24,000 nt of DNA from Promethearchaeati archaeon (GCA_013166835.1 JABLTI010000029.1:5579-29578), one strand, 5' to 3'. Shown: positions 3,223-23,209, counted from the stretch's first letter. Notes: generated from the sequence alone by a model not told the origin. Numbers and translations: made by a program.

Positions 3223-6200
3223 TTACTTTTCTTTCAATAAATCGCTAAGATTACTAACTCCAAAAGGTCCAATCTGTTCTAATTGCGTTGCGAGAATAAA
3301 GAGAGTGTTGAGTGTTATCGTTTCTCTTGGTTTTACTTTGATTTCTCGAGTATTTTTTGTCAAAGAAATATGAGTTAGATTTGGTGAATACGGATAAACG
3401 CTGCTAATAAATTGACCTCTTGAACAAGCAACACCAAAGTAATATTTGTTATCTGCTTTCTTAAATGCAGACCATAAGTTTCCATATAACTTTTCATAAC
3501 CAACTTCAGATTCATGATTCTGCAGTTTGTAAGTCATAGTTTTTCCTTGTTTATCTTGAATGAAATAACGGTCTCTTTCAGAATTTGATGTTTTCAAATC
3601 GGCAGTAGTATGAGCATAGAGATTCCTCGTGGATCCCGACAGATTTGTAAATACTTGTTGACCTAAGACAATAGGAGAATCAGGGAGTGTTAGGAATCGA
3701 TTTTCCACTTGTATGCCCTTTATTGCCGGATGAAATGTTAACACGTTTGATTTGAATCCAATACCTTTCCAATTACCTTCTTCTATTTCATAAGAATCAA
3801 AGGTGATATTGTCAAAGTACTTCTCATCACCAATCCAGAAGTGTTTTGGTTTTACTATGGGTCCGAGTCCACCATAAAAGTGATTAAACCATAAGAATGG
3901 TTTGCTTTCTGGGAAGTTTGTAAGCAAGTAATTATGATCATCATCTGCTGGTGATAAGAAGAAAACATAGCCCTTGAAATCCTTACTTCCTTTGAATTTC
4001 AAGTATCCATTGTTGACTTCTAAAACTTCTTTATTATCAACTAATGATTTTGTTATTGTGACATCCTCTTTCTTATCAAAGAATGCAAAAGCTATAGGTG
4101 TATCATACTTTTTGGTTTTACAATCAAAGGTGATTTTACCACCCACAACATAGCTTTTTGGTGCTTTTATTTTGATTTCTTCTTGCCAAAATCTTCCTTT
4201 GTGAGATTTAATTTTGAAGCTACTCGGTTCTGTTATTTTTTCTTTGAGAGAGATATCGACTTTTCCTTTTAATGTTGTAGTTCCTGAAGCATCAAAAGCC
4301 ACATCTATTGTTTTCTGATTCTTATCAAGAATTACTCCTTGAGCTAGTGTTTCACCTTCAATTTTATTGATGAATCCAAATTGTTTCATATTTTCCGGGA
4401 AATGATAAAATTGCAATTCATTTTCAGGGGAGTAATGAAACTTGTCTTGCCACATTTTCCTAACTGCTTGCCAGGAATCTGTAAAATAGTAATAAGTAAA
4501 TGGTGTTTCATAACTAGTTTTGCCTTTCAACTCAGCTATTTTATAATCGACACTTGGAAATCTTCTGGGTCGGATTTTATCAATTTTATTTAAATCATGG
4601 AGAAATCCAATTGTTCCACTTACGTACTCGGTTGCTCTCCAACCCTCAGAAAAATCTGATGGATCATCTTCGAAAATAGTTGGAACTTCATACATGTTTC
4701 CAGTTTTTATTCCATCCTTTGTTGGAATAATTATATTCTTAACATCAGTTTGTCCAGGCCACCAATAGGAACCTAGTTGTATACCTAGGTCACCGATTGG
4801 TTTATCAGTGAGATTTTCTACCAAATATTTGAAACCGATTGGCTCATTGCTTGTTGGGATAAAGGCCTTTCTTGTTACTTTAATTCCTTTTTTATCCTCT
4901 GATAGTCCAGTACTATGTATCCAAACACCATTAGATTCTTCTTTAATTTCATGTTCCAATTGTAGATTAAAGAATTCACTTCCATCATCATCAAAAGGAT
5001 AGCCTAGAATTATAGCATTACCATTTATACACAATCTTCTAAGTTTGTCAGTGATATAGATTTCATTTGACCAAGGTTGTGGTTTTCTATTGAATTTCAC
5101 TAAGTAATGTTTGTTTTCTATGTAAACAAGCTCCTCAAATTCATATACCACAGATTTGTTTTCGTTGAAGATGACAACAGGTAAGAGTCTCTCTTGTAAT
5201 AATTCATTATCCTTTGTTGTAGCTCTAACCTTAACAAAATCAACAACTGTATCTGTGCTTCCAGTCTCAGCAGCAACCTCAAGTATTGTATCATATTTTG
5301 AAATTTTCACTTCGTGTTGCTTTTTCTTAAAAGTAATGAAATTTGTATCTGTTAATTCAATTTTAATTGCTTTTTCTTCATCAAAGCAATTTATAATTTC
5401 AAGAGGTAATGTAAATTGATGATTTGGAATGGTATTATAATTTACTGGAGCTGTCAAGATCTTAATTGCATGTAATGGTGCTTTCCCTATTCTTATTGGA
5501 AAACTTACTCCATCGCTTTCAATATTAAATGTAATTTGATGTTCACTGTAGTTTTGATGATGTATTTTCATATCAAATTCATTAGTATCATAAGCAAAAC
5601 TAGCTGTAAATTGGAGAATTTTCTCCTCTTTTGGCTTTACAATTATTTCTTGTTTTTCAACTTTTAATTTGATTTTATCAGAAATTTGAGTATTAATTTG
5701 AAACTTCTTTTCAGTAGAGCCATTATTTCTGATTGTCAATGTTATTGGAAATTCCTCAAAACCAATGAATGCTTCAGTATTTGGTACAGTTGCTTTCACA
5801 AATAAATCATCATTCTCAGTTTTCTTATGGAACCCACTAATGCAGCCAATGCTTCTATCTATCCAAACTTCTAGAGAATTTTTCTCATCCATTACAAAAT
5901 CGTATTTGTAGATTGCCATTTTCTCTTCGAATTCTTCATCCGGAATTTGATTAATTACTGGTTTAAAGGAATTATACCATGAATACTTCTCAAACATCTC
6001 TTGGAGAAGTGGATAAACCAGTATTTGAGGAAGATAATTCTCAAGATAACAAGAAGTATTAGGTCGCCACTTGTAACCTTGCTTCTTGTAAAGAGGCATC
6101 GCCTTAAGATTTCCACCCCACGTATGGAGAGAAATTAATGGAGCTTTATGTTTTAGTGCGTGTCTAGTGGATTCTAAGAGAAGAGCTTTTCCAAATTTCT

Positions 6201-6573
6201 GTCCTTGATATGCAGGATCAACCCCTATCAACTGAACATACCAAGCATCAGATAGATTCCATGATCTACTACAGATACTTACTCCCACTATTTTATTCTC
6301 ATCATCAGGGGCATTAATAATGAAACGGCTTGAATGATCAAGACCTTTGAATCTCTTTTCTAAATATTCACCAGTAAATTCGAAATTCCCACCAAAACCA
6401 CCTGGCCAGCTATCGGTATCATTGAAAGTCTTATAGCAACTCGCTAATGCATCGTAGTCTTTTCTTTCCTCACGTAATGTTCTAATCAATTCTGTTTTTT
6501 CATCTTGTAGGAAGATTATTTCTCTGATGTCCATACTGGTCTTATCAGTGCTTTTTTTAGGGTTCATTTCCAT
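3223..6573 (-). CDS. Large GNAT-family N-acetyltransferase fusion protein: N-terminal GNAT domain plus about 930 aa of uncharacterised beta-rich region
   Basis: 1116-aa ORF. Residues about 85-175 carry GNAT motif A, 'WYVQLIGVDPAYQGQKFGKALLLES' (Q-x-x-G-x-G/A acetyl-CoA loop), and 'AMPLYKKQGYKW' (motif B). No N-terminal signal or TM segment. The remainder has no motif I recognise. GGTGG lies directly before the first ATG and 6 nt before the in-frame ATG at 6567, so the start may be 6567. Confidence 0.8.
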   Translation of the reverse strand: MEMNPKKSTDKTSMDIREIIFLQDEKTELIRTLREERKDYDALASCYKTFNDTDSWPGGFGGNFEFTGEYLEKRFKGLDHSSRFIINAPDDENKIVGVSICSRSWNLSDAWYVQLIGVDPAYQGQKFGKALLLESTRHALKHKAPLISLHTWGGNLKAMPLYKKQGYKWRPNTSCYLENYLPQILVYPLLQEMFEKYSWYNSFKPVINQIPDEEFEEKMAIYKYDFVMDEKNSLEVWIDRSIGCISGFHKKTENDDLFVKATVPNTEAFIGFEEFPITLTIRNNGSTEKKFQINTQISDKIKLKVEKQEIIVKPKEEKILQFTASFAYDTNEFDMKIHHQNYSEHQITFNIESDGVSFPIRIGKAPLHAIKILTAPVNYNTIPNHQFTLPLEIINCFDEEKAIKIELTDTNFITFKKKQHEVKISKYDTILEVAAETGSTDTVVDFVKVRATTKDNELLQERLLPVVIFNENKSVVYEFEELVYIENKHYLVKFNRKPQPWSNEIYITDKLRRLCINGNAIILGYPFDDDGSEFFNLQLEHEIKEESNGVWIHSTGLSEDKKGIKVTRKAFIPTSNEPIGFKYLVENLTDKPIGDLGIQLGSYWWPGQTDVKNIIIPTKDGIKTGNMYEVPTIFEDDPSDFSEGWRATEYVSGTIGFLHDLNKIDKIRPRRFPSVDYKIAELKGKTSYETPFTYYYFTDSWQAVRKMWQDKFHYSPENELQFYHFPENMKQFGFINKIEGETLAQGVILDKNQKTIDVAFDASGTTTLKGKVDISLKEKITEPSSFKIKSHKGRFWQEEIKIKAPKSYVVGGKITFDCKTKKYDTPIAFAFFDKKEDVTITKSLVDNKEVLEVNNGYLKFKGSKDFKGYVFFLSPADDDHNYLLTNFPESKPFLWFNHFYGGLGPIVKPKHFWIGDEKYFDNITFDSYEIEEGNWKGIGFKSNVLTFHPAIKGIQVENRFLTLPDSPIVLGQQVFTNLSGSTRNLYAHTTADLKTSNSERDRYFIQDKQGKTMTYKLQNHESEVGYEKLYGNLWSAFKKADNKYYFGVACSRGQFISSVYPYSPNLTHISLTKNTREIKVKPRETITLNTLFILATQLEQIGPFGVSNLSDLLKEK

Positions 6574-8397: not shown

Positions 8398-9444
8398 TTA
8401 GAATCTCCTAGGAGCTCTAGGATAGGATTTATACTTCGTTCGAGGTTCTGTGCTAATCCAATCACCAGATTCATCTAGATGTGAGAGTGATCTCAAGATA
8501 TCAAAGGTTACCCACCTAGTTGCTTGGGGATTTGGAATATAGTCCCACAACCCATATGTTCCTTGTACCTCTTGTAAGTATTTCACCATATTTGCTACTC
8601 TTGGATCTTCTGTTGTCGCACCTATTCTCCAACATAGATTTAGAATTAATGCTAAATCATAGCGTCCATGGAAGGTTAGGAAGCCATGTGCTGGCTCTAT
8701 ACCAATTATCCTTGCTACTTCGAATCCTAGATAGTTTCTATCTTTAGTTTCTCTAGAGAGTAATAAATCAAGCACTCTTTTTGGTACATCTGTGTTTCTT
8801 CTTTTTGGATGATAGGCAAATGCATTCAGAGCACTGGTACTATTTGTTCTACAACCAAATCGCGAATTTGGAAGTTGACGGTAACCAACAGGTTGATAAC
8901 CTATTTTCCCATCTGGAGAGAAAATTGTAGGCCAAGAACCATCCTCTGCTCGATGTTCTATCAGCCACTCATAAGCCTTCTCTGCTCGAGAGTCTTCGGC
9001 AAAACCACTTATAGCTAAGGCAAATAATGGATCAGCTGTTTGTTTTGGTGTTATTGCTGGACCATGGGTGGGATGTATAAAATGTAAAACTCTGCCTGGT
9101 TGTCTTGGCCAGGCTCCATCATCGAATTGATGAGTGAAGAGGTATTCTGCGGCTTTTTGTATTGCTGGATGATCGTTTTGTAACCCCAAATAACCTAATC
9201 TAATCATTGCAAGGGAAGTATTCCTAATTGGACTATCTAGTAATAATCCTAATGATTCACTTGTTGACCATGAACCATCTTTTTGTTGAATAGCTAGTAG
9301 AGCAGTTATCAAAGGATCTTTTTGTTGTTGTCTAATCAATTCCTTGATTTCTTTATCATCAACGTCTTTATGCAAAAGCTCTTTCAAAACCAATAATCGA
9401 AGAGAAGGAGAAGCATCACCTAGTAATAATGGTAACCAAGTCAT
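8398..9444 (-). CDS. QW-repeat alpha/alpha-toroid protein (terpene cyclase / prenyltransferase / squalene-oxidase-repeat fold), function unknown
   Basis: Four matches to the QW motif [KR][AG]xx[FYW][LIV]xxxQxxxGxW: KAAEYLFTHQFDDGAW (aa 97-112), KAYEWLIEHRAEDGSW (156-171, R in place of Q), NMVKYLQEVQGTYGLW (285-300), and a looser LLAIQQKDGSW (49-59). No signal peptide. The start ATG overlaps the upstream gene's stop (ATGA at 9441-9444). GGAGGG lies 6 nt upstream. Confidence 0.75.
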   Translation of the reverse strand: MTWLPLLLGDASPSLRLLVLKELLHKDVDDKEIKELIRQQQKDPLITALLAIQQKDGSWSTSESLGLLLDSPIRNTSLAMIRLGYLGLQNDHPAIQKAAEYLFTHQFDDGAWPRQPGRVLHFIHPTHGPAITPKQTADPLFALAISGFAEDSRAEKAYEWLIEHRAEDGSWPTIFSPDGKIGYQPVGYRQLPNSRFGCRTNSTSALNAFAYHPKRRNTDVPKRVLDLLLSRETKDRNYLGFEVARIIGIEPAHGFLTFHGRYDLALILNLCWRIGATTEDPRVANMVKYLQEVQGTYGLWDYIPNPQATRWVTFDILRSLSHLDESGDWISTEPRTKYKSYPRAPRRF

Positions 9445-12400
9445 AAGTTACCCTCCAAGACTTTTTTGATGTATACTGCTGATGGAGTTTTTCCAAGAGA
9501 TACTTTCTCCGGAGTCTCTGAGGCAACAATTAACCCACCTTCTGGTCCTCCAACTGGACCAAGCTCAATTAACCAATCGCACGCAGCTAAAACATTCGGA
9601 TGATGTTCAACTACTATTACTGTGTTTCCAGCATCGACAAGTCGCTGAAGTATTCCTATTAAGCGTTCAACATCTTCTAAGTGTTGTCCAACTGTAGGCT
9701 CATCGAGGATATATAATGTATGATCTTTCGTTTTCTTACATAGCTCTTTCGCTATCTTCATTCTCTGAGCTTCTCCACCAGACAAGGTGTATCTTGGTTG
9801 TTGCAATACAAGATAACCTAGACCAACGTCAATTGCTGCTTTCAAGTGCCGAGCTATAGTTTCATTCTCATCCTTGAAGAGTCTATAAACTTGGTTGATA
9901 GTTAATTTCAGAAGATCTGGCAAAGAAAATTCTTTTACTTTGACTTCCCACGCCTCTGGTATAAAACCGGTTCCTTTACAGATATCACAACTTGAGTAAA
10001 CAGTAGGTAGGAAACCCATTTCCATTCTTATTCGACCGGTACCCTTGCAAGCGGAGCAACCTCGTTTGTAATGTTTATCCGTAATTCCAAGAATATCAGC
10101 CTCTGCTGTTTCTGTATAGATTTTGATTAGAGGATTTAGTAATCCAAAGAATCTTAGGGGACTGTAGATGTTTCTCTTCGATTGATCAACTAGTAAAGCA
10201 TTCTTTGGTGAACCTTCTATTGATTCATGTTCTCCAGGTTTCATTCGTTCACTATGTATAGAAGTAGTCAATTTCTTTGGAGCAACAACATTTCCAAGAG
10301 TATCTATAATTAATGTGCTTTTTCCACTTCCTGATACGCCACAAACTCCAACTAAAACTCCAAGAGGAATTTTAACATCTATGTTTTGTAGATTATGTTC
10401 CTTAGCACCTTTTATTGTCATCCATTTAGTGGCTTTTCTTCTTGGTTCGGAAATTAGTTTTAGTTGTTCATCTTGATTTGTGTGGTATGGATTTGTTTTC
10501 TTTTTCCCTGATAACCAATTAGATGTTGTAGTATTCATTTTCATAATTTCTTCAATTGAACCTTGTGCAATAATCTCTCCACCAGCAACTCCTGAACCAG
10601 GACCAAGGTCAATTATATGATCTGCTCCGGTTATTATCTCTGGATCATGTTCCACAACAACAACCGAATTGCCATCATTTCGAAGTTCTAGTAGGACATC
10701 TAGAAGATCATTTACTTCTGAGGGATGCAATCCTCGAGTAGGTTCATCAAGGAGAATAGTAAGGGAGGTTAAACCACTTCCAAGAATAGAAGCTAATCGT
10801 AATCGTTCGTATTCACCAGCAGATAAATTATATGTCGGACGATCGGGATTAATATACCCAAGACCAACTTTTATCAGATAATTCAATCTCTTGGTTAACT
10901 TCTCAAGATTTTGCTGCAGTAATTCTACCCCTATAAAATCTGAGGGTTCAATTTTCTTAATTACCTTTGCTAGATTTTTAATGGTCATTTGTCGCAATTG
11001 ATGAATGTTGAAACCTTTTAATTTGAAAGCTAAATATTCTTCTTTTAATTTCTGCCCATTACAAACATCACAAGTGAATTTGTCGCTATAAGTTTCAAAT
11101 AAGTCACCATAACTAAACCAGCTAAATCCACCCCACGCCTGAAAAACTCCCCAAACTCGCTGGTCTCGAACATATTTGATTATTTTTCCTTTGCTTCTTC
11201 CCTCTACTTCGAACTCCCACTTCTCATCTGAGCCATAAAGGAAGATCTGTTTCGCTTCCTCCGGAATTTCATTCCAAGGAGTTTTTTGAGGATCGAAATT
11301 ATATCTCATTGCAATTTCTTTTAACAAGTAATAAGCTGAATTTAGTGGTTTGCAGTAGTAACCATAAGGCCAAAAACCAGGCGAGTACATTGCACCATCA
11401 CAAATCGGTTTCTCAGGATGAATGATTAATTTATCAATATTAGGTGTCCCAATAAATCCTAAGCCTTTACATTTTTCACAACTGGAAATCAAGCTTACTG
11501 GCGAGAAATGAGTTGGTCTCACAAAACTAGCTGTGGATTTGCATTTCGGACAAATCCAATGTTCTTCTCCTCTTCTCATCATGGTTCTACATTCTAGACA
11601 TTCTCGCTCTCCTATGTGAGTCATAAATGTATAAAGATGATCAGCTATCTCACTTACATTTCCAACCGTATACCTCGGATCAATACGCCAAGCACTCCTA
11701 AAAGATCTAAGAATAGCTGTAACTCCTAATCCTGTGATAGAATCTACTGGTGCTTCTGGACCTTCATTCATACTTTGACGTTCATAAATCGATAAACTCT
11801 CGAGAAATCTTCGTCTGGCTTCTAATTCTAAAACATCATTAACTAAACTCGATTTACCTGAACCCGATATACCCGTAACAACTGCAAGTTTGCCTTTCGG
11901 GATATCCACACTGATATTTTTTAGATTGTTTGCTCTTGCTCCTTTAACAGAAATTACATCAGAGTGTTGGAATTTCTTCTCACTCGTAAGAGTTCTAGGA
12001 GTGTATTCTTCTTCTTCCAGAAGTGCTTTACTTGTTAGAGATTTTTTACACTTTAGTAGATCATTTACAGTCCCACTAAAGATTAATTCACCACCAAATG
12101 GTCCTGCTCCCGGGCCAAGATCGATAATCCAATCCGCAGCTCGAATTATATCCGTATTATGTTCGACAATAACTATTGTTGCTCCTGCTCTTACAAGTCT
12201 ATCAAATACAACTAACAAGCCAGAAATATCACTTGGATGTAAACCAGTACTTGGTTCATCTAAAACAATAAGATTTTCAGTAAGATTTCTTCTTCCAAGA
12301 TATTTCGCTAATTTTACTCTTTGAGCTTCTCCCCCACTCAGAGTTGGTGATGCTTGTCCTAGATGTAAATAACCCAGTCCAATATCTATTAGTGCTTTCA

Positions 12401-14435
12401 AAATTGATTCCGCACTTTTTCGATTCTTTTCCGAGAGATATTCACTCTCGAGTATATAGGGAGTAGCCTCTCTAATACTAAGATTATAAAAATCCCCTAT
12501 AGATAATACATCACCATTGAATTCTACATTTGCATCTAGTATTTCTTGTTTAAACCTTAAACCACGACATTTCTCACATGGAAGCCAAATTGGAGCAATG
12601 TAGGGCATTTTTACTTCCATGGCTCCTAAACCTTCACACTCTTCACACTGACCATCTTTCCTATTAAATGTAAAATGAGATTTCGTAAAATTAGTTGCCG
12701 CAGCAAAAATATCTCGAATAATATCTGAGAGCTTTGTATAGGTAGCTGGATTTGATCTTGGATTCCTACCAATTGGACTCTGATCGACTAATACTGGTTT
12801 CTTCTTTCTACCAATAACCTCTTCACAACCTTGAGGTTCCTTTTTCAATAAACTTGCAACTAAGACATCTTTAACTAGAGTGCTTTTTCCAGAACCAGAA
12901 ACTCCAGTTACTGCAGAAATTCTTTGAAGTGGTAATTGAATATCTATCCCCTTCAAATTTCTGAAGATTGCATTTTTTATAGTAAGAAACTTATCGGGTT
13001 GTGGTCGTAATTCAGGTATGACTACTTTATCCCGGAAACTAAAATAACGACCAGTTGGACTATCTTCAGACCACAGATTCTTAGCTGTTCCATGGAAAAC
13101 GATCTCTCCTCCTTCTCTCCCTGCTCCTGGTCCGATATCAATCGCTTGATCTGCTACTGCTGCAGCCATTCGGTCATGTTCAACATACACTACTGGACCT
13201 GCTAATTCCCGGAAAGCTGGTAGAAATTTCATGACATCATTTGGGTGTTGACCAATTGTTGGTTCATCAAGTATGTGAAGCATGTCTTCAAGTCTACTAG
13301 TAAGAATTATTGCAAGTCTTACTCTTTGAGCTTCTCCTCTCGAGAGAGTAGGAGATGACCTATTTAATGAAATATAACCCAAACCAACTCTGTGGAGTGC
13401 ATTTATTCTTCTTGTAATTTCATCCTTTAATCTATCAGCTGTTTTTGGCAGAAAAACAGTCTCAAATAATTTCTTAATTTCACTCACAGATAGTTTCAGA
13501 AGATCAGGTAGCATTAAGCCATTCCATCTCACTGCGACAGCTTCAGGATGAAGCCCTGTAGAATGACATAACTCACAACCTTTTCCCTTACACGCTTCAC
13601 AAGGCATATGGAAATACTTGGGTTCAAGTTCTGTGAACCAGTAATTACAATTAGTGCAAATTCTTGTTTTCGCTAATTTTGTTTCTTCATCTTTTGCGCG
13701 AACAATTATGTAGGAGGATCCTAATTCAAAAACTTGCTGTATAATCTCTCTTATCTGCTTTGTATTCGCTTTCTTTGTGAGTACAGCCAATTTTATTTCG
13801 ATATTATGCTCTTTATTTGGATCTAAAGACTTACCATCCCAATTTTTCTTGTCAATTATTATCGATTCATTATCGAATTTTTCCTCTAACATACTTAGGA
13901 GAGTTTTATGACTTCCTAATGATTGCTGATTAACAGGTGCTAGAATCTCAATTGTATCCGTACTCACTTTATTTCTAACAATGTCTATTATTGCATCCTC
14001 TGAATGAACAGCTAAACCAGAACTGCACTCTGGACAGAAACGAATGCCAAAATTTGCAAATAAAATTCTAAAGAAAGGATGTAAACCTGAAGAAGTTGCT
14101 AACGTTGAGAGTGGATTACGATTTAAGACATTTTGATCTACAGCAACAGCAGGACTAATTCCTGTAATGGTATTTACATTTGCTTTTGGGAGTCTTAATC
14201 GAGTAGAGCGAGGAGTAAAAATATCAAGAAATCTTCTGCGAGCTTCATGATATAAGGTGTCATACACAAGTGAACTTTTTCCAGAACCGGAAATTCCAGT
14301 AACAACCGTTAAACCATCTTGTATTTCTACATCCACGTTTTTCAGATTGTTTTCTTTCGCACCCTCGATTTTGATTTTCATCGAAATCTCTCGACTTTTC
14401 GCATCTCTGAAGTGTTTACCCTTTTTCCTTCTCAC
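9441..14435 (-). CDS. Tandemly duplicated UvrA-like ABC ATPase (excinuclease ABC subunit A paralogue) with four nucleotide-binding domains
   Basis: Walker A motifs: GISGSGKS (aa 47-54), GVSGSGKS (511-518), GISGSGKS (855-862), GVSGSGKS (1366-1373). Signature motifs: LSRGE 364, LSGGE 699, LSAGE 1204, LSGGE 1551. Walker B motifs: ILDEP 388, VLDEP 724, LLDEP 1228, ILDEP 1576. There are multiple CxxC zinc modules. Both halves begin with the UvrA hallmark I-x-[GV]-[AK]-x-x-x-NLKN. The tracked ORF starts at GTG 14435. By homology the likelier start is ATG 14381 (MKIKIEGAKENNLKN). Confidence 0.92.
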   Translation of the reverse strand: MRRKKGKHFRDAKSREISMKIKIEGAKENNLKNVDVEIQDGLTVVTGISGSGKSSLVYDTLYHEARRRFLDIFTPRSTRLRLPKANVNTITGISPAVAVDQNVLNRNPLSTLATSSGLHPFFRILFANFGIRFCPECSSGLAVHSEDAIIDIVRNKVSTDTIEILAPVNQQSLGSHKTLLSMLEEKFDNESIIIDKKNWDGKSLDPNKEHNIEIKLAVLTKKANTKQIREIIQQVFELGSSYIIVRAKDEETKLAKTRICTNCNYWFTELEPKYFHMPCEACKGKGCELCHSTGLHPEAVAVRWNGLMLPDLLKLSVSEIKKLFETVFLPKTADRLKDEITRRINALHRVGLGYISLNRSSPTLSRGEAQRVRLAIILTSRLEDMLHILDEPTIGQHPNDVMKFLPAFRELAGPVVYVEHDRMAAAVADQAIDIGPGAGREGGEIVFHGTAKNLWSEDSPTGRYFSFRDKVVIPELRPQPDKFLTIKNAIFRNLKGIDIQLPLQRISAVTGVSGSGKSTLVKDVLVASLLKKEPQGCEEVIGRKKKPVLVDQSPIGRNPRSNPATYTKLSDIIRDIFAAATNFTKSHFTFNRKDGQCEECEGLGAMEVKMPYIAPIWLPCEKCRGLRFKQEILDANVEFNGDVLSIGDFYNLSIREATPYILESEYLSEKNRKSAESILKALIDIGLGYLHLGQASPTLSGGEAQRVKLAKYLGRRNLTENLIVLDEPSTGLHPSDISGLLVVFDRLVRAGATIVIVEHNTDIIRAADWIIDLGPGAGPFGGELIFSGTVNDLLKCKKSLTSKALLEEEEYTPRTLTSEKKFQHSDVISVKGARANNLKNISVDIPKGKLAVVTGISGSGKSSLVNDVLELEARRRFLESLSIYERQSMNEGPEAPVDSITGLGVTAILRSFRSAWRIDPRYTVGNVSEIADHLYTFMTHIGERECLECRTMMRRGEEHWICPKCKSTASFVRPTHFSPVSLISSCEKCKGLGFIGTPNIDKLIIHPEKPICDGAMYSPGFWPYGYYCKPLNSAYYLLKEIAMRYNFDPQKTPWNEIPEEAKQIFLYGSDEKWEFEVEGRSKGKIIKYVRDQRVWGVFQAWGGFSWFSYGDLFETYSDKFTCDVCNGQKLKEEYLAFKLKGFNIHQLRQMTIKNLAKVIKKIEPSDFIGVELLQQNLEKLTKRLNYLIKVGLGYINPDRPTYNLSAGEYERLRLASILGSGLTSLTILLDEPTRGLHPSEVNDLLDVLLELRNDGNSVVVVEHDPEIITGADHIIDLGPGSGVAGGEIIAQGSIEEIMKMNTTTSNWLSGKKKTNPYHTNQDEQLKLISEPRRKATKWMTIKGAKEHNLQNIDVKIPLGVLVGVCGVSGSGKSTLIIDTLGNVVAPKKLTTSIHSERMKPGEHESIEGSPKNALLVDQSKRNIYSPLRFFGLLNPLIKIYTETAEADILGITDKHYKRGCSACKGTGRIRMEMGFLPTVYSSCDICKGTGFIPEAWEVKVKEFSLPDLLKLTINQVYRLFKDENETIARHLKAAIDVGLGYLVLQQPRYTLSGGEAQRMKIAKELCKKTKDHTLYILDEPTVGQHLEDVERLIGILQRLVDAGNTVIVVEHHPNVLAACDWLIELGPVGGPEGGLIVASETPEKVSLGKTPSAVYIKKVLEGNL
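9451..9456 (-). promoter_or_regulatory. Shine-Dalgarno-like GGAGGG embedded in the 3' end of the UvrA-like gene, serving the downstream toroid gene
   Basis: The minus strand reads GGAGGG-TAACTT-ATGA. The spacing to the ATG at 9444 is 6 nt, and the TGA of the upstream ORF overlaps that ATG. Confidence 0.5.
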
Positions 14436-14566
14436 TATTAATTTATTTTGTAAGCAATGGTTACTTTTATCGTTTTAGTAATCTTGATGATAGGAGATTA
14501 CCGAAAGTAAAGGAAATTTGTAGGAAGAATCTGTTTATCACTTAGAATTTTTTTTAATTGAATAAC

Positions 14567-14574
14567 TTTTAAAA
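14567..14574 (+). promoter_or_regulatory. TATA-like A/T box (TTTTAAAA) for the oligopeptidase B gene
   Basis: It is centred about 27 nt upstream of ATG 14597, and there is no SD sequence in between. This geometry fits an archaeal TATA box driving a leaderless or near-leaderless mRNA. The region is AT-rich, so a chance match is plausible. Confidence 0.3.
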
Positions 14575-14596
14575 GAACCACGTTTGCTATTATTTT

Positions 14597-20548: not shown

Positions 20549-21664
20549 CTAGTGCTGAAGAATTTTCGTTTTACGTTTTTTCAGCATTTTTTCTCTCTTA
20601 CTTTCAAGTAAATCTACAAATGCTTCTAATCTTGTTTGAAATCCCGCTTCTCCTGTATGTTCATCTACTACAAGAGATAAAACTGGCATGCCGCTTTCAC
20701 GACTCACTTGAGGGAAAATACTTCTTGATATGATTTCAGGCATACAAGTGAAAGGATAGAGGTGTATTAATCCGTCCCAGCCTTTCTTCTTATAGAGAAA
20801 AGCATCTCCAAGATTCTCTTGTGTTTCACCACCAACTCTATATGGAACATATTTAACACCATAGGCATTTGCTTTTTGGAAATCCATCTTTTTGAACGGA
20901 TTCAATCTCTGACCAATATCAACAAATCTCCTCAAAGTTACAGGAGTCTTCGTAATTACTCCCAACTCATTTAATCGTTTATAGATATCCAAATTCAGTG
21001 CAGGTTCTAAAACAACATAGATTTCACCATTCACCACAACTTTCAAAGGATTTGCTTTTTTATCCACTTCCACATTTTCAGCAAACATTTTTGTGATAAT
21101 TTTCGATAATTTTCTTATCTTACTCATTTTTCTTGTTGAGACGATTAGCTGGAATGCATCATTAGCGATCCTTTCAGCACTCCCCTTTTCGATTTCAATA
21201 GCTCGATATTTAAACAGTAATTGGTCTGTTAAATCCGTTAAACGATTTTTTACCCATGTTTTTTGTAAAACTCTAATTGTTTGCAATGTATTTAGACCCG
21301 TACTTACGTTCTTCAATACTTGCACAATATCTTTCGTACTTTCATAATCTATTCTTACCCATTTACAATCATAACCCAAATCTTCCAAAATAATCTTTTG
21401 AACTTGCCAATAAAAACGAAAGCGACAATAGCCATGCCCCCCACCCATTCCCAATTCATCAGCTCCACGTTCAAGACTTTCAATAAAAGTACCCAAAGTG
21501 AGTTTGAAAGGTGTACAGACAAATTCTGGAGAATATCTAGATCCAAGTTGAAATGTTTTCTTACTTGGTTTATTTGGAATAACTAAGTCGTATCTTCCTA
21601 AATCATGAAATAATGACACGAAGACATACTTAAGAGACCCGAAGTGTGGGAACGTGAACGGCAT
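20549..21664 (-). CDS. Acyl-CoA dehydratase activase-related protein, 2-hydroxyglutaryl-CoA dehydratase D-component-like domain (COG3581-like)
   Basis: The N-terminus 'LGSRYSPEFVCTPFKLTLGTFIESLERGADELGMGGGHGYCRFRFY' and C-terminus 'LIHLYPFTCMPEIISRS...LSLVVDEHTGEAGFQTRLEAFVDLL' match the family pattern I remember (SPEFACLP...; CGPD...DEHtgeAG..TRlEAFvDml). It overlaps the upstream gene by 35 nt. Confidence 0.75.
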   Translation of the reverse strand: MPFTFPHFGSLKYVFVSLFHDLGRYDLVIPNKPSKKTFQLGSRYSPEFVCTPFKLTLGTFIESLERGADELGMGGGHGYCRFRFYWQVQKIILEDLGYDCKWVRIDYESTKDIVQVLKNVSTGLNTLQTIRVLQKTWVKNRLTDLTDQLLFKYRAIEIEKGSAERIANDAFQLIVSTRKMSKIRKLSKIITKMFAENVEVDKKANPLKVVVNGEIYVVLEPALNLDIYKRLNELGVITKTPVTLRRFVDIGQRLNPFKKMDFQKANAYGVKYVPYRVGGETQENLGDAFLYKKKGWDGLIHLYPFTCMPEIISRSIFPQVSRESGMPVLSLVVDEHTGEAGFQTRLEAFVDLLESKREKMLKKRKTKILQH

Positions 21665-22310
21665 GTTTCTCCTTTCTCCATCTTAACATATCGACAAATG
21701 CTTCAATACGAGTTTTCATCCCTGCTTCTGCAGTTAAATCATCTAAAACTAACTGTAATAGAGGGATGTCTTGTTTTTCTAAAGCAAACCTATTAGCTAA
21801 TTCTCCTGCTAATGAATCAGGACCACAACTAAAGATCATTAAATGAATTATACCATCAACACTTTCATTTTCAAGGAAATACATGATTGTCCCTAAAATC
21901 TCTCGTTCAAATTCAAAGTATAATCGATTTTCCAATTTGTCTAATTGCTTATCAATTAGTTCTCTTGGCATTTGTTCAGAAGTGATGACGTCTGCACCAT
22001 ATGATTGTAATTTCTTTCGAATATCTAAGGAACAAAAACTATCATTTATTACGTAGGTATGACCGACAAGAGCAATTTTTAGCGTTTTCTCATCTTTTAT
22101 TTCATCTGGAGGATCGTTAAGAAGAATAACAGATCGTTCCCACAGATGAAGTGTCTCAAGATCAATGATTAATTTCTTCTTATATTCCTTATCTGCTTTC
22201 AAAGCTTTTCTCATGGCTTTTATAATTCGGAAGGGATTCTTTGTAAAAACAAAACCAACTTTGAGAACTTCCTTGAAAAAATCAAATTTCGTATGACCAT
22301 ACTTTGCCAT
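21630..22310 (-). CDS. Acyl-CoA dehydratase activase-related protein, DUF2229-like, C-terminal portion (frame-broken from 22366-22584)
   Basis: 'LKIALVGHTYVINDSFCSLDIRKKLQSYGADVIT' and 'IIHLMIFSCGPDSLAGEL...LQLVLDDLTAEAGMKTRIEAFVDML' fit the DUF2229/COG3580 pattern. The frame stays open upstream of the ATG to 22382 and encodes plausible protein (ADVLRSLYPDLPPLIAPHFN). Confidence 0.7.
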   Translation of the reverse strand: MAKYGHTKFDFFKEVLKVGFVFTKNPFRIIKAMRKALKADKEYKKKLIIDLETLHLWERSVILLNDPPDEIKDEKTLKIALVGHTYVINDSFCSLDIRKKLQSYGADVITSEQMPRELIDKQLDKLENRLYFEFEREILGTIMYFLENESVDGIIHLMIFSCGPDSLAGELANRFALEKQDIPLLQLVLDDLTAEAGMKTRIEAFVDMLRWRKEKHAVHVPTLRVS

Positions 22311-22669: not shown

Positions 22670-23209
22670 TCATTCACTTGGCAGAGATTTCTGAATAAGA
22701 ATCAACTGCCCTAAGTGATAGGAATTATGTTGAAGAAGAATCTGCATAATCTTATACTTTTGAACATTACTCCATGAAGGCGTTGGATGGGAGAAATCAA
22801 GAGTATCGATTAATTTAGCGACAGTTTCCAACCCAGCAAGAAATTGCTTTTTATGAGTATTGAACGTTTTCTCATCACTATCATTCTCCGGAAATGATTT
22901 CAGCTCAATATTCTCCTTGAATGATGTGTCATCATCTAGTAGTAACATGATAAGTAATTTCTGCCAAAAAATCATGTGATAAAAGATCTCCCAAATAGTG
23001 GAAACATTTGGAGCAATACACTGATTAACAATACTAAATGGAAGCTTCTCGATAGCTTCTTTGGTGTTGAGATGAGTGTCCCCACCAATAAGACCATCTT
23101 TCAAATGAAGCCTAAATTCTTTAAGAAATTCTTCAGAAGTCATTTTACTCGAGACCACTATAATGAAGATAACTAATAAAACCATTTTGTTGTTAAAAAC
23201 CAAGAGCAA
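22670..23209 (-). CDS. DinB-superfamily (DinB_2-like) four-helix-bundle protein
   Basis: The C-terminal 'LLQHNSYHLGQLILIQKSL' is the typical DinB-family histidine motif, and 'IFYHMIFWQ' supplies an earlier His. The first 22 codons are a hydrophobic, low-complexity extension. A likelier start is ATG 23143 (MTSEEFLKEF), which gives 157 aa. Confidence 0.7.
   Translation of the reverse strand: MLLVFNNKMVLLVIFIIVVSSKMTSEEFLKEFRLHLKDGLIGGDTHLNTKEAIEKLPFSIVNQCIAPNVSTIWEIFYHMIFWQKLLIMLLLDDDTSFKENIELKSFPENDSDEKTFNTHKKQFLAGLETVAKLIDTLDFSHPTPSWSNVQKYKIMQILLQHNSYHLGQLILIQKSLPSE

Follow-up and report, generated by a model that had tools for sequence, protein, structure and literature searches.

In the current model of nucleotide excision repair (NER), a symmetric UvrA dimer finds the damaged strand by loading a pair of UvrB molecules, one to each strand (PMC12796330); the stoichiometry of the complex, A2B2 or A2B1, is debated (PMC7835731). 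Class II UvrA proteins (D. radiodurans UvrA2, 2VF7; DrrC; and Ecm16, 7SH1) are homodimers that lack the UvrB-binding domain; those that have been characterized are independent of UvrB and UvrC, and Ecm16 works without UvrA, UvrB, UvrC, or UvrD (PMC9328131). The canonical, class I proteins (E. coli; G. stearothermophilus, 2R6F/3UWX; T. maritima, 3PIH; C. thermocellum, 9GXK) have two nucleotide-binding domains (NBDs), and their homodimers carry two insertion and two UvrB-docking domains. The idea of a fused UvrA is known already: the Chlamydia-type long UvrA, which has its own NCBIfam model (NF001885/PRK00635, 1,809 positions), likewise holds two units in one polypeptide. Goosen and Moolenaar (2008) are said to have named a 'class III' UvrA, a tandem of units without the UvrB-binding domain; the literature that we searched yielded nothing on fused or 'class III' UvrA. 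Here we analyze a gene for such a double UvrA in a 24,000-nucleotide stretch of DNA, the window, from a Promethearchaeati archaeon (GCA_013166835.1, JABLTI010000029.1:5579-29578). The window is chromosomal DNA of a Heimdall-like Asgard archaeon; the genes adjoining the double uvrA and its toroid partner are housekeeping genes.

Each half of the double UvrA retains the two NBDs, signature domains, three zinc modules, and dimer-interface motifs of class I UvrA. The double UvrA departs from class I proteins in that its units are parts of a single chain, with just one UvrB-binding domain and one insertion domain between them; a Q-loop glutamine is gone, a DNA-contact motif in NBD-II has diverged, the NBD-I signatures read LSRGE and LSAGE rather than LSGGE, and the gene is coupled to a gene for a toroid protein. 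Like class II UvrA, half 2 lacks the UvrB-binding domain and has the insertion domain, but it is covalently tied to a half that bears the UvrB-binding domain; its matches to 2VF7 (E = 1e-121) and 7SH1 (E = 1e-108) are weaker than those to class I proteins, and only this half, not the whole protein, fits class II. The architecture, WBW|WIW in profile hidden Markov model (HMM) searches seeded on E. coli UvrA, also differs from the WIW|WIW expected of the 'class III' tandem. Reciprocal domain loss together with a degenerate ATP site and an obligate toroid partner turned up nowhere in the literature that we searched. We computed architecture, motif conservation, operon structure, distribution, and phylogeny directly; they lead us to propose, at roughly even odds (a probability of about 0.5), that the double UvrA may be an asymmetric single-chain pseudo-dimer and may form, with its toroid partner, a separate lesion- or ligand-handling module.

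Two complementary UvrA units in one chain

The open reading frame (ORF) occupies 9441-14435 on the minus strand without interruption and counts 1,664 codons from a GTG at 14435, which gene callers take as the start. The start is probably the ATG at 14381, giving 1,646 residues; we favor it because the homologues in our alignment all begin at the motif MxIxIxGA. Residue numbers are counted from this ATG and equal those of an earlier note on this DNA minus 18. The main features of the gene are as follows.

9441-14381, minus strand: double-UvrA gene, 1,646 aa; stop codon at 9441-9443
12021-14381, minus strand: half 1, aa 1-787; NBD-I and NBD-II with canonical motifs, UvrB-binding domain present, insertion domain absent
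9444-11957, minus strand: half 2, aa 809-1646; UvrB-binding domain absent, insertion domain present, several motifs diverged
11958-12020, minus strand: tether between the halves, aa 788-808 (about 21 aa); weakly conserved sequence, constrained length
14274-14297, minus strand: Walker A of ATP site 1, aa 29-36
12882-12905, 11850-11873, and 10317-10340, minus strand: Walker A of the other three sites
13659-14024, minus strand: UvrB-binding-type domain of half 1, aa 120-241 (122 aa), between C116/C119 and C242/C245 of zinc module 1
13566-13601, minus strand: zinc module 2 of half 1 (C261/C264 and C269/C272), with a 4-residue loop in place of the insertion domain
11541-11600, minus strand: zinc module 1 of half 2 (C928/C931 and C944/C947), the UvrB-binding domain replaced by a loop of 12 residues
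11073-11468, minus strand: insertion (DNA-clamping) domain of half 2, aa 972-1103 (132 aa), between C968/C971 and C1104/C1107 of zinc module 2
11661-11732, minus strand: degenerate Q-loop in NBD-I of half 2, aa 884-907, glutamine missing
10122-10187, minus strand: diverged, shortened motif after the Q-loop in NBD-II of half 2, canonical DQSPIGRTPRSNPATY changed to DQS---KRNIYSPLRFFGL

The earlier note had proposed that one polypeptide joins two UvrA units, and this is borne out. Besides the uninterrupted frame, the whole protein passes two UvrA family models, scoring 1,398 bits with TIGR00630 (uvra; cut-off 729.8; summed over both halves in four to five stretches) and 1,337 bits with NF001503 (cut-off 1,147; again both halves summed), a match far above chance. 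The best match in the PDB is T. maritima UvrA (3PIH) for half 1 (E = 9e-157) and half 2 (E = 3e-161) alike. There are more than 120 clusters of full-length homologues at 90% identity, from many assemblies, 1,610-1,680 aa long and 53-93% identical to the window protein, the closest at 93%; counts out of 120 below refer to such clusters. Our scan of GTDB kept 80 species loci (L001-L080), and in all 80 residues 1 to ~1644 are covered with the same architecture.

The units are not the two complete ones that the earlier note had supposed. When aligned with 3PIH, half 1 covers residues 4-283 and then 382-911, skipping the insertion domain, and half 2 covers residues 4-127 and then 247-904, skipping the UvrB-binding domain. 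Pfam finds UvrA_inter in half 1 only (PF17760, 26.8 bits against a cut-off of 23.3) and UvrA_DNA-bind in half 2 only (PF17755, 31.9 bits); HMMs seeded on E. coli UvrA score the same two domains at 78 and 83 bits. Since half 1 has the UvrB-binding domain, the protein does not belong to the class, mentioned in the earlier note, whose units lack that domain; fusions of that kind do exist, as a separate type (see below). Both losses are family-wide. The UvrB-binding insert of half 1 measures 118-133 aa in 120/120 homologues, and the loop of its zinc module 2, where canonical UvrA has an insertion domain of ~110 aa, is 4 aa in 119/120; the module-1 loop of half 2 is 11-23 aa across the family. The halves are thus incomplete and complementary UvrA units, and because the reciprocal loss is fixed across hundreds of lineages they must act together as one unit, which has a single docking domain and a single DNA clamp.

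A motif scan confirmed the four sets of ATP-site motifs described before. In the earlier numbering, Walker A (GxSGSGKS) lies at aa 47, 511, 855, and 1366, and the ATP-binding cassette (ABC) signatures are LSRGE at 364, LSGGE at 699, LSAGE at 1204, and LSGGE at 1551. Walker B (xLDEP) follows each signature by ~24 residues; a regular expression matched it at 722 and 1574, and the remaining two, HILDEP and LLLDEP, were identified directly in the translation. The Walker A lysine, the Ser-x-Gly-Glu core of the signature, and the Walker B Asp-Glu are kept at all four sites in at least 119/120 homologues, and the four H-loop histidines are invariant in an alignment of 39 sequences. The motif I/V-x-G-A-x-x-NL-K/Q-N had been described as an N-terminal motif present in both halves. 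It is present in both (at 23 and 830 in the earlier numbering), but it recurs at 1341, and a degenerate fourth copy opens NBD-II of half 1; because copies are found at the start of every NBD, the motif marks the start of each NBD and not the N-terminus of the protein.

The protein has six zinc modules, three per half, made up of 24 cysteines in 12 CxxC pairs, each kept in at least 119/120 homologues; module 3 is complete in both halves. Five further cysteines outside these modules are invariant or nearly so in the 120 homologues: C519, C994, C1010, C1347, and C1601 (nt ~12823, 11398, 11350, 10339, and 9577). C994, which is invariant, and C1010 (98%) lie within the insertion domain of half 2 beside a conserved histidine. 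These cysteines could form an additional metal site or a redox switch.

Beyond the lost domains, the halves differ in fixed ways. The NBD-I signatures are half-specific, LSRGE in half 1 and LSAGE in half 2. The NBD-I Q-loop glutamine is absent from 13/14 sampled second halves of type A, our term for the WBW|WIW reciprocal-loss fusions to which the window protein belongs; it is present in 68/70 other units, among them every type-A first half and every canonical or class-II-like single UvrA. Likewise, the DQSPIGRTPRSNPATY motif after the NBD-II Q-loop is canonical and family-invariant in half 1, whereas in half 2 it is diverged and three residues shorter. Heterodimeric ABC proteins with one degenerate ATP site are known among transporters, which do not bind DNA, such as TM287/288, TAP1/2, and CFTR. 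They share with the double UvrA a pseudo-symmetric ABC pair, one site lacking a consensus catalytic-loop residue, and divided roles; in contrast to these transporters, the double UvrA keeps the Walker B glutamate and the H-loop histidine at that site and has lost only the Q-loop glutamine.

In cryo-EM structures of Ct-UvrA, the NBD-I:NBD-I dimer interface is built from three sequence elements, and Y62, Q65, and F66 are the residues that probe the helix (PMC12796330). All three interface elements are nearly invariant in both halves, with residues that differ by half: RRF, G-L/I-G/S-P-A, and SRLEDM in half 1; RRF, GLGV, and GSGLTSL in half 2. The helix-probing element is kept in half 2 only (Y866 in 102/120 homologues and E867-R868-Q869 in 120/120).

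The acidic linker reported earlier is there in the text of the translation (nt 11970-12047), but not as a unit: its SLTSKAL is the conserved C-terminal motif of the UvrA unit (S-x-T-G-x-A-L in the family), its EEEE run is not conserved, and the real tether is ~21 aa. In sequence the tether shows 24% identity to the window; the stretch between the positions of aa 787 and 812 is 22-24 residues long in 106/120 homologues. An AlphaFold2 (AF2) model of aa 1-1200 has a mean predicted local distance difference test score (pLDDT) of 85.5 and a predicted template modeling score (pTM) of 0.72, with a pLDDT of ~70 in the tether. The low-confidence stretches coincide with the wedge loops and with the degenerate Q-loop (pLDDT below 50 at aa 892-899). 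The model of this part of the chain is in keeping with halves held in fixed positions relative to each other, short of proof.

Origin and relatives of the fusion

The halves have diverged, as the earlier note had expected: they are 32% identical over their full length and 36% on 608 core columns, below the 41% core identity that each shows with canonical UvrA. In a neighbor-joining tree of 84 UvrA units, which is distance-based only and has long branches as a caveat, half 1 and half 2 are each monophyletic in 100/100 bootstraps and are sisters in 0/100; half 2 groups with the single class-II-like UvrAs of Asgard operons in 81/100. Because the halves are never sisters and half 2 goes with the class-II-like proteins, the tree favors an old fusion of two different paralogues, or else a very old duplication, over a simple tandem duplication.

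Some of these single UvrAs are encoded beside the double gene. A separate class-II-like uvrA of ~835 aa lies upstream in 12 Asgard or unclassified-archaeal loci, directly so in 11. In one Thorarchaeota locus (L038), a full-length canonical UvrA is encoded 2 kb upstream of the fused gene, and a second Thorarchaeota locus has a UvrA C-terminal fragment at its edge. We considered inteins as the source of unusually long matches of 6.3-7.4 kb (14 loci) and rejected them: in 11 of these loci the match takes in the separate upstream class-II-like uvrA, with a stop codon between the genes, and the others have unrelated extensions.

The 80 loci come from Asgard archaea (27), Bathyarchaeia (10), other archaea (5), and Chloroflexota (31), the remaining seven being Desulfobacterota, KSB1, Clostridia, Spirochaetales, and unclassified genomes. 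Archaeal and bacterial double UvrAs are interleaved in a tree of L001-L080; for example, the Desulfobacterales protein of L005 stands beside those of Bathyarchaeota L007 and Chloroflexota L016. This interleaving fits transfer of the two-gene unit between domains, with binning error or contamination of metagenome-assembled genomes as an alternative.

To survey fused UvrAs at large, we used aa 267-1466 as a query against 1.84 billion cluster representatives (50% identity) and took the best 150. All of these are UvrA-UvrA fusions or fragments of them, most of them 1,560-2,340 aa long, and together with the uniform architecture of the 80 loci they leave little of the earlier view of a rare class. 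At least five architectures occur among them:

full unit + unit without insertion domain: 41 clusters
class II + class II (WIW|WIW): 26 clusters, plus 11 scored WIWIW, which we read as WIW|WIW with one Walker A missed
full + full: 22 clusters
reciprocal type (WBW|WIW): 10 clusters plus fragments
full + class II: 4 clusters, or 6 including two N-terminally truncated ones

Halves of the other fusion types stand apart from type-A halves in the tree, consistent with separate fusion events. With the Chlamydia-type model NF001885 (cut-off 3,054) the window protein scores 875.5 bits, and the five other fusions tested are also below the cut-off. Fused UvrAs are thus a large, varied, and largely undescribed group.

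Four fusions of other types were examined for neighbors, and none has the toroid partner beside it. The gene for one of them, P0266 (1,783 aa), in which a full unit is joined to one that lacks the insertion domain, shares 4 nt with a gene for an XPB/ERCC3-like helicase (L088, 6001-15100) with ERCC3_RAD25_C, ResIII, and Helicase_C_3 domains, and a second Helicase_C_3 protein follows. This coupling suggests that fused UvrAs can pair with effectors other than UvrB; the three other fusions have no obvious partner gene. The full + full proteins P0257 and P0260 (2,334 and 2,343 aa) continue for another ~330 aa at the C-terminus; this extension contains an internal repeat (PWxxDGRRWHTQDR...) and is unrelated to the toroid partner.

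A toroid protein encoded in strict coupling

The second gene of the putative operon and its upstream region lie at the following positions.

8398-9444, minus strand: partner gene, 348 aa, a single-domain alpha/alpha toroid with QW-type repeats, directly downstream of the double uvrA
14382-14596, no strand: intergenic region to a divergent prolyl-oligopeptidase gene, the presumed promoter region of the two-gene operon

The ATG of the partner overlaps the stop codon of uvrA (ATGA), with GGAGGG 7 nt upstream. The partner is directly downstream in 77/77 informative loci, the contigs of the remaining three ending at the 3' end of uvrA, and the overlap is exactly 4 nt in 51 of 59 loci. It is found even beside a double-UvrA member of only 43% identity, and clustering of all ORFs of the loci revealed no other broadly conserved neighbor. 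The distance matrices of UvrA and partner correlate with r = 0.90, a value that none of 999 permutations reached.

The partner family comprises ~800 clusters with varied annotations (terpene cyclase, prenyltransferase-repeat protein, hypothetical protein). An AF2 model of the partner is all-helical (pLDDT 91.9, pTM 0.91), and Foldseek returns matches at the level of the fold only (TM 0.3-0.45), to class II terpene cyclases, complement TED domains, and glycoside hydrolases. In sequence, the partner matches Pfam PF13243 (42 bits), and the family profile matches squalene-hopene cyclase with E = 7e-25 in the QW-repeat region only. With single-domain class II terpene cyclases (MstE, 6SBB; squalene-hopene-cyclase-like 8PAK/8PAJ) it shares the ~345-aa alpha/alpha toroid and the QW-type repeats; in contrast to them, the family has no conserved DxDD general acid (the sole DxDD of the window protein, aa 27-30, is not conserved), the structural similarity is low, and the genomic companion is a DNA-damage sensor and not an enzyme of a prenyl pathway. 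We rejected a true terpene cyclase on the missing DxDD and the low family scores, TIGR01787 reaching 38 bits against a cut-off of 323. The residues that are conserved include G187-Y188-R189, G197-C198-R199, N201, H212, D226, W300, W311, D315, and a basic C-terminal tail.

Three other candidate connections were tried and set aside. A known phage-defense system is not indicated by PADLOC, where the partner has no match and the UvrA matches only generic ABC models, mad3 covering one NBD. A search of plasmids gave only distant squalene-hopene-cyclase-like matches, and a BLAST search for the partner fused to long UvrAs (2,166-2,343 aa) gave none, their C-terminal extensions being unrelated.

Candidate functions and the genomic surroundings

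We infer the intramolecular fold, DNA binding, ATPase activity, partner contact, and substrate from the features above, as follows. Two anciently diverged UvrA units joined by a ~21-residue tether would make up a UvrA2-dimer equivalent with built-in asymmetry, in which NBD-I of both halves would pack together as in the canonical dimer to give one DNA-binding surface and four ATP sites. The ATPase engine of half 1 would be canonical, as would its NBD-II DNA-contact motif, and half 1 alone would offer a docking domain of the UvrB-binding type; half 2 alone would contribute a DNA-clamping insertion domain and a helix-probing Y..RQ element, the Q-loop of one of its ATP sites being degenerate. The double UvrA may scan duplex DNA and recognize distortions using ATP and, having one docking domain, would pass the site, on a defined side, to a single copy of a downstream factor. 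The toroid protein, translationally coupled and strictly co-inherited, would most likely be a stoichiometric partner, either effector or adaptor. Together they would be a self-contained, horizontally mobile module for lesions or DNA-bound toxins that works beside canonical UvrABC and does not replace it.

We favor such a separate module over plain NER because of the obligate coupling to the toroid gene, the presence of canonical or class-II-like UvrAs beside it in some genomes, and the affinity of half 2 for class II. A single docking domain means that the scheme with two UvrBs cannot be followed, and the double UvrA probably works differently from textbook excision repair. A stronger version of the proposal is tentative: the module may be self-sufficient without UvrB and UvrC, the toroid may be a new kind of UvrA effector, built-in asymmetry may replace strand finding by two UvrBs, and the unit may be mobile among Asgard archaea, Bathyarchaeia, and sediment bacteria.

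Because the UvrA homodimer is symmetric, it is hard to tell what each of its four ATP sites, each of its two insertion domains, and each of its two UvrB-docking domains does. The double UvrA is in effect a naturally evolved asymmetric mutant, in which the docking domain, the insertion domain, and the probing element each occur once and a single site is degenerate; each site could be mutated separately, and whether one loaded partner suffices could be tested directly. The strict coupling of the toroid protein suggests a so far unstudied way of DNA surveillance by UvrA, a putative UvrA-toroid branch common to sediment bacteria and Asgard archaea, the closest known prokaryotic relatives of eukaryotes.

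Several points weigh against a separate module. The docking domain of half 1 may still bind UvrB, since it passes the Pfam model for UvrB interaction, and a review reports that Asgard archaea have UvrABC (PMC12993045). A tblastn search with the E. coli proteins found no uvrB or uvrC within 10 kb of the gene in the 80 GTDB loci or in the window, which speaks for the module but says little because uvr genes are usually scattered. The correlation between the distances of the adjacent UvrA and partner genes goes back in part to shared history alone, and no recognizable catalytic or DNA-binding motif was found in the partner. Partial Mantel tests, moreover, tie the divergence of the partner more closely to the insertion domain (partial r 0.53) than to the docking domain (0.23), a weak signal in which evolutionary rate is a confounder. 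Given the stronger signal on the insertion domain, we rejected a docking site limited to the UvrB-binding domain and commit to no contact surface.

The strongest competitor, which we nevertheless consider rather unlikely, is that the fused protein is simply the NER UvrA of its hosts, binding one UvrB through half 1 in an A2B1-like complex before UvrC cuts, with the toroid as an accessory or passenger. Scores above the cut-offs of TIGR00630 and NF001503, a UvrB-binding domain retained at conserved length, and the reported use of UvrABC in Asgard archaea all speak for it, as does the annotation of other long fused proteins in reduced genomes as UvrA, such as the 1,809-aa Kinetoplastibacterium protein. 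The single docking domain, however, breaks the strand-finding model with two UvrBs, and the second UvrB contact surface, which lies in signature domain II of the other protomer (PMC12796330), would fall in the diverged half 2. In addition, canonical UvrA coexists beside the fused gene in L038, and strict 4-nt coupling in both archaea and bacteria would be difficult to account for if the toroid gene were a passenger.

The affinity of half 2 for class-II-like UvrAs, its sisters in the tree, also leaves room for a DrrC/Ecm16-like activity, in which the ATPase would detach DNA-bound intercalators or adducts with no incision, and the toroid would capture or modify the released compound in its hydrophobic pocket. 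Terpene-cyclase-like cavities bind hydrophobic polycyclic compounds, Ecm16 is independent of the Uvr proteins, and the Loki/Hermod operon described below joins the pair with a PadR regulator, a methyltransferase, and a class-II-like UvrA; DrrA-like ABC ATPases are encoded near the pair in 18 loci and AlkZ-like glycosylases in 8. We still regard this activity as unlikely: there is no biosynthetic cluster nearby, the neighbors in the window being housekeeping genes, and it has no need for a retained UvrB-type docking domain.

It is also quite improbable that half 1 pairs with half 2 of another molecule, giving dimers or filaments. The reciprocal loss of domains demands that a half 1 meet a half 2, not that both belong to one chain, but the tether length is tightly held at 22-24 residues, and the model of aa 1-1200, with its pTM of 0.72 and a tether pLDDT of ~70, argues against it as well. 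Finally, an assembly or gene-calling error that merged two adjacent uvrA-like genes, for instance through a stop codon or frameshift collapsed in the linker as the earlier note had feared, can be dismissed, as no evidence was found for it and the same 4,995-nt gene occurs with 3-4 substitutions and 0 indels in contigs assembled independently from four sequencing runs. Both halves are also spanned by all 80 GTDB loci and by each of the more than 120 full-length clusters, and the tether is in frame in all of these.

Loci of the Loki/Hermod type have a longer same-strand cluster that the pair ends (L001, 6411-17739; also L039, L040, L052, L053, L057, L060, L064, L070, L072, and L078). Its genes encode, in order, PadR, BtrH_N/DUF4872, and DUF3795 proteins, an S-adenosylmethionine (SAM) methyltransferase, the ~835-aa class-II-like UvrA, the double UvrA, and the toroid protein. 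With its three UvrA units, the cluster resembles a regulated operon for the response to xenobiotics or genotoxins. The AlkZ-like glycosylases, of a kind associated with crosslink repair, flank the double uvrA (downstream in L010, 17977-19197), and the DrrA-like ABC ATPases (PF13732) lie at most 10 kb away (for example, L001 25558-26547).

A gene of the DinB/DinB_2 family lies 8 kb from the operon in the window (22670-23209, minus strand), and two copies stand beside the 43%-identical member (L090, 11963-13061); this proximity may be coincidence. Within the uvrA gene, an antisense ORF of 144 aa (window 11890-12324, plus strand) has similar counterparts in 55 loci, most simply explained as shadow ORFs of a conserved coding region and not as genes. 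Elsewhere in the window, a 1,116-aa protein (3223-6573, minus strand) has a GNAT acetyltransferase domain near its N-terminus (aa 75-168) and no Pfam match in its other ~950 aa. Two overlapping ORFs of 371 and 226 aa (20549-22310, minus strand) both have partial matches to HGD-D and DUF2229, domains associated with CoA-enzyme activases, and could be tandem paralogues or one frameshifted gene.

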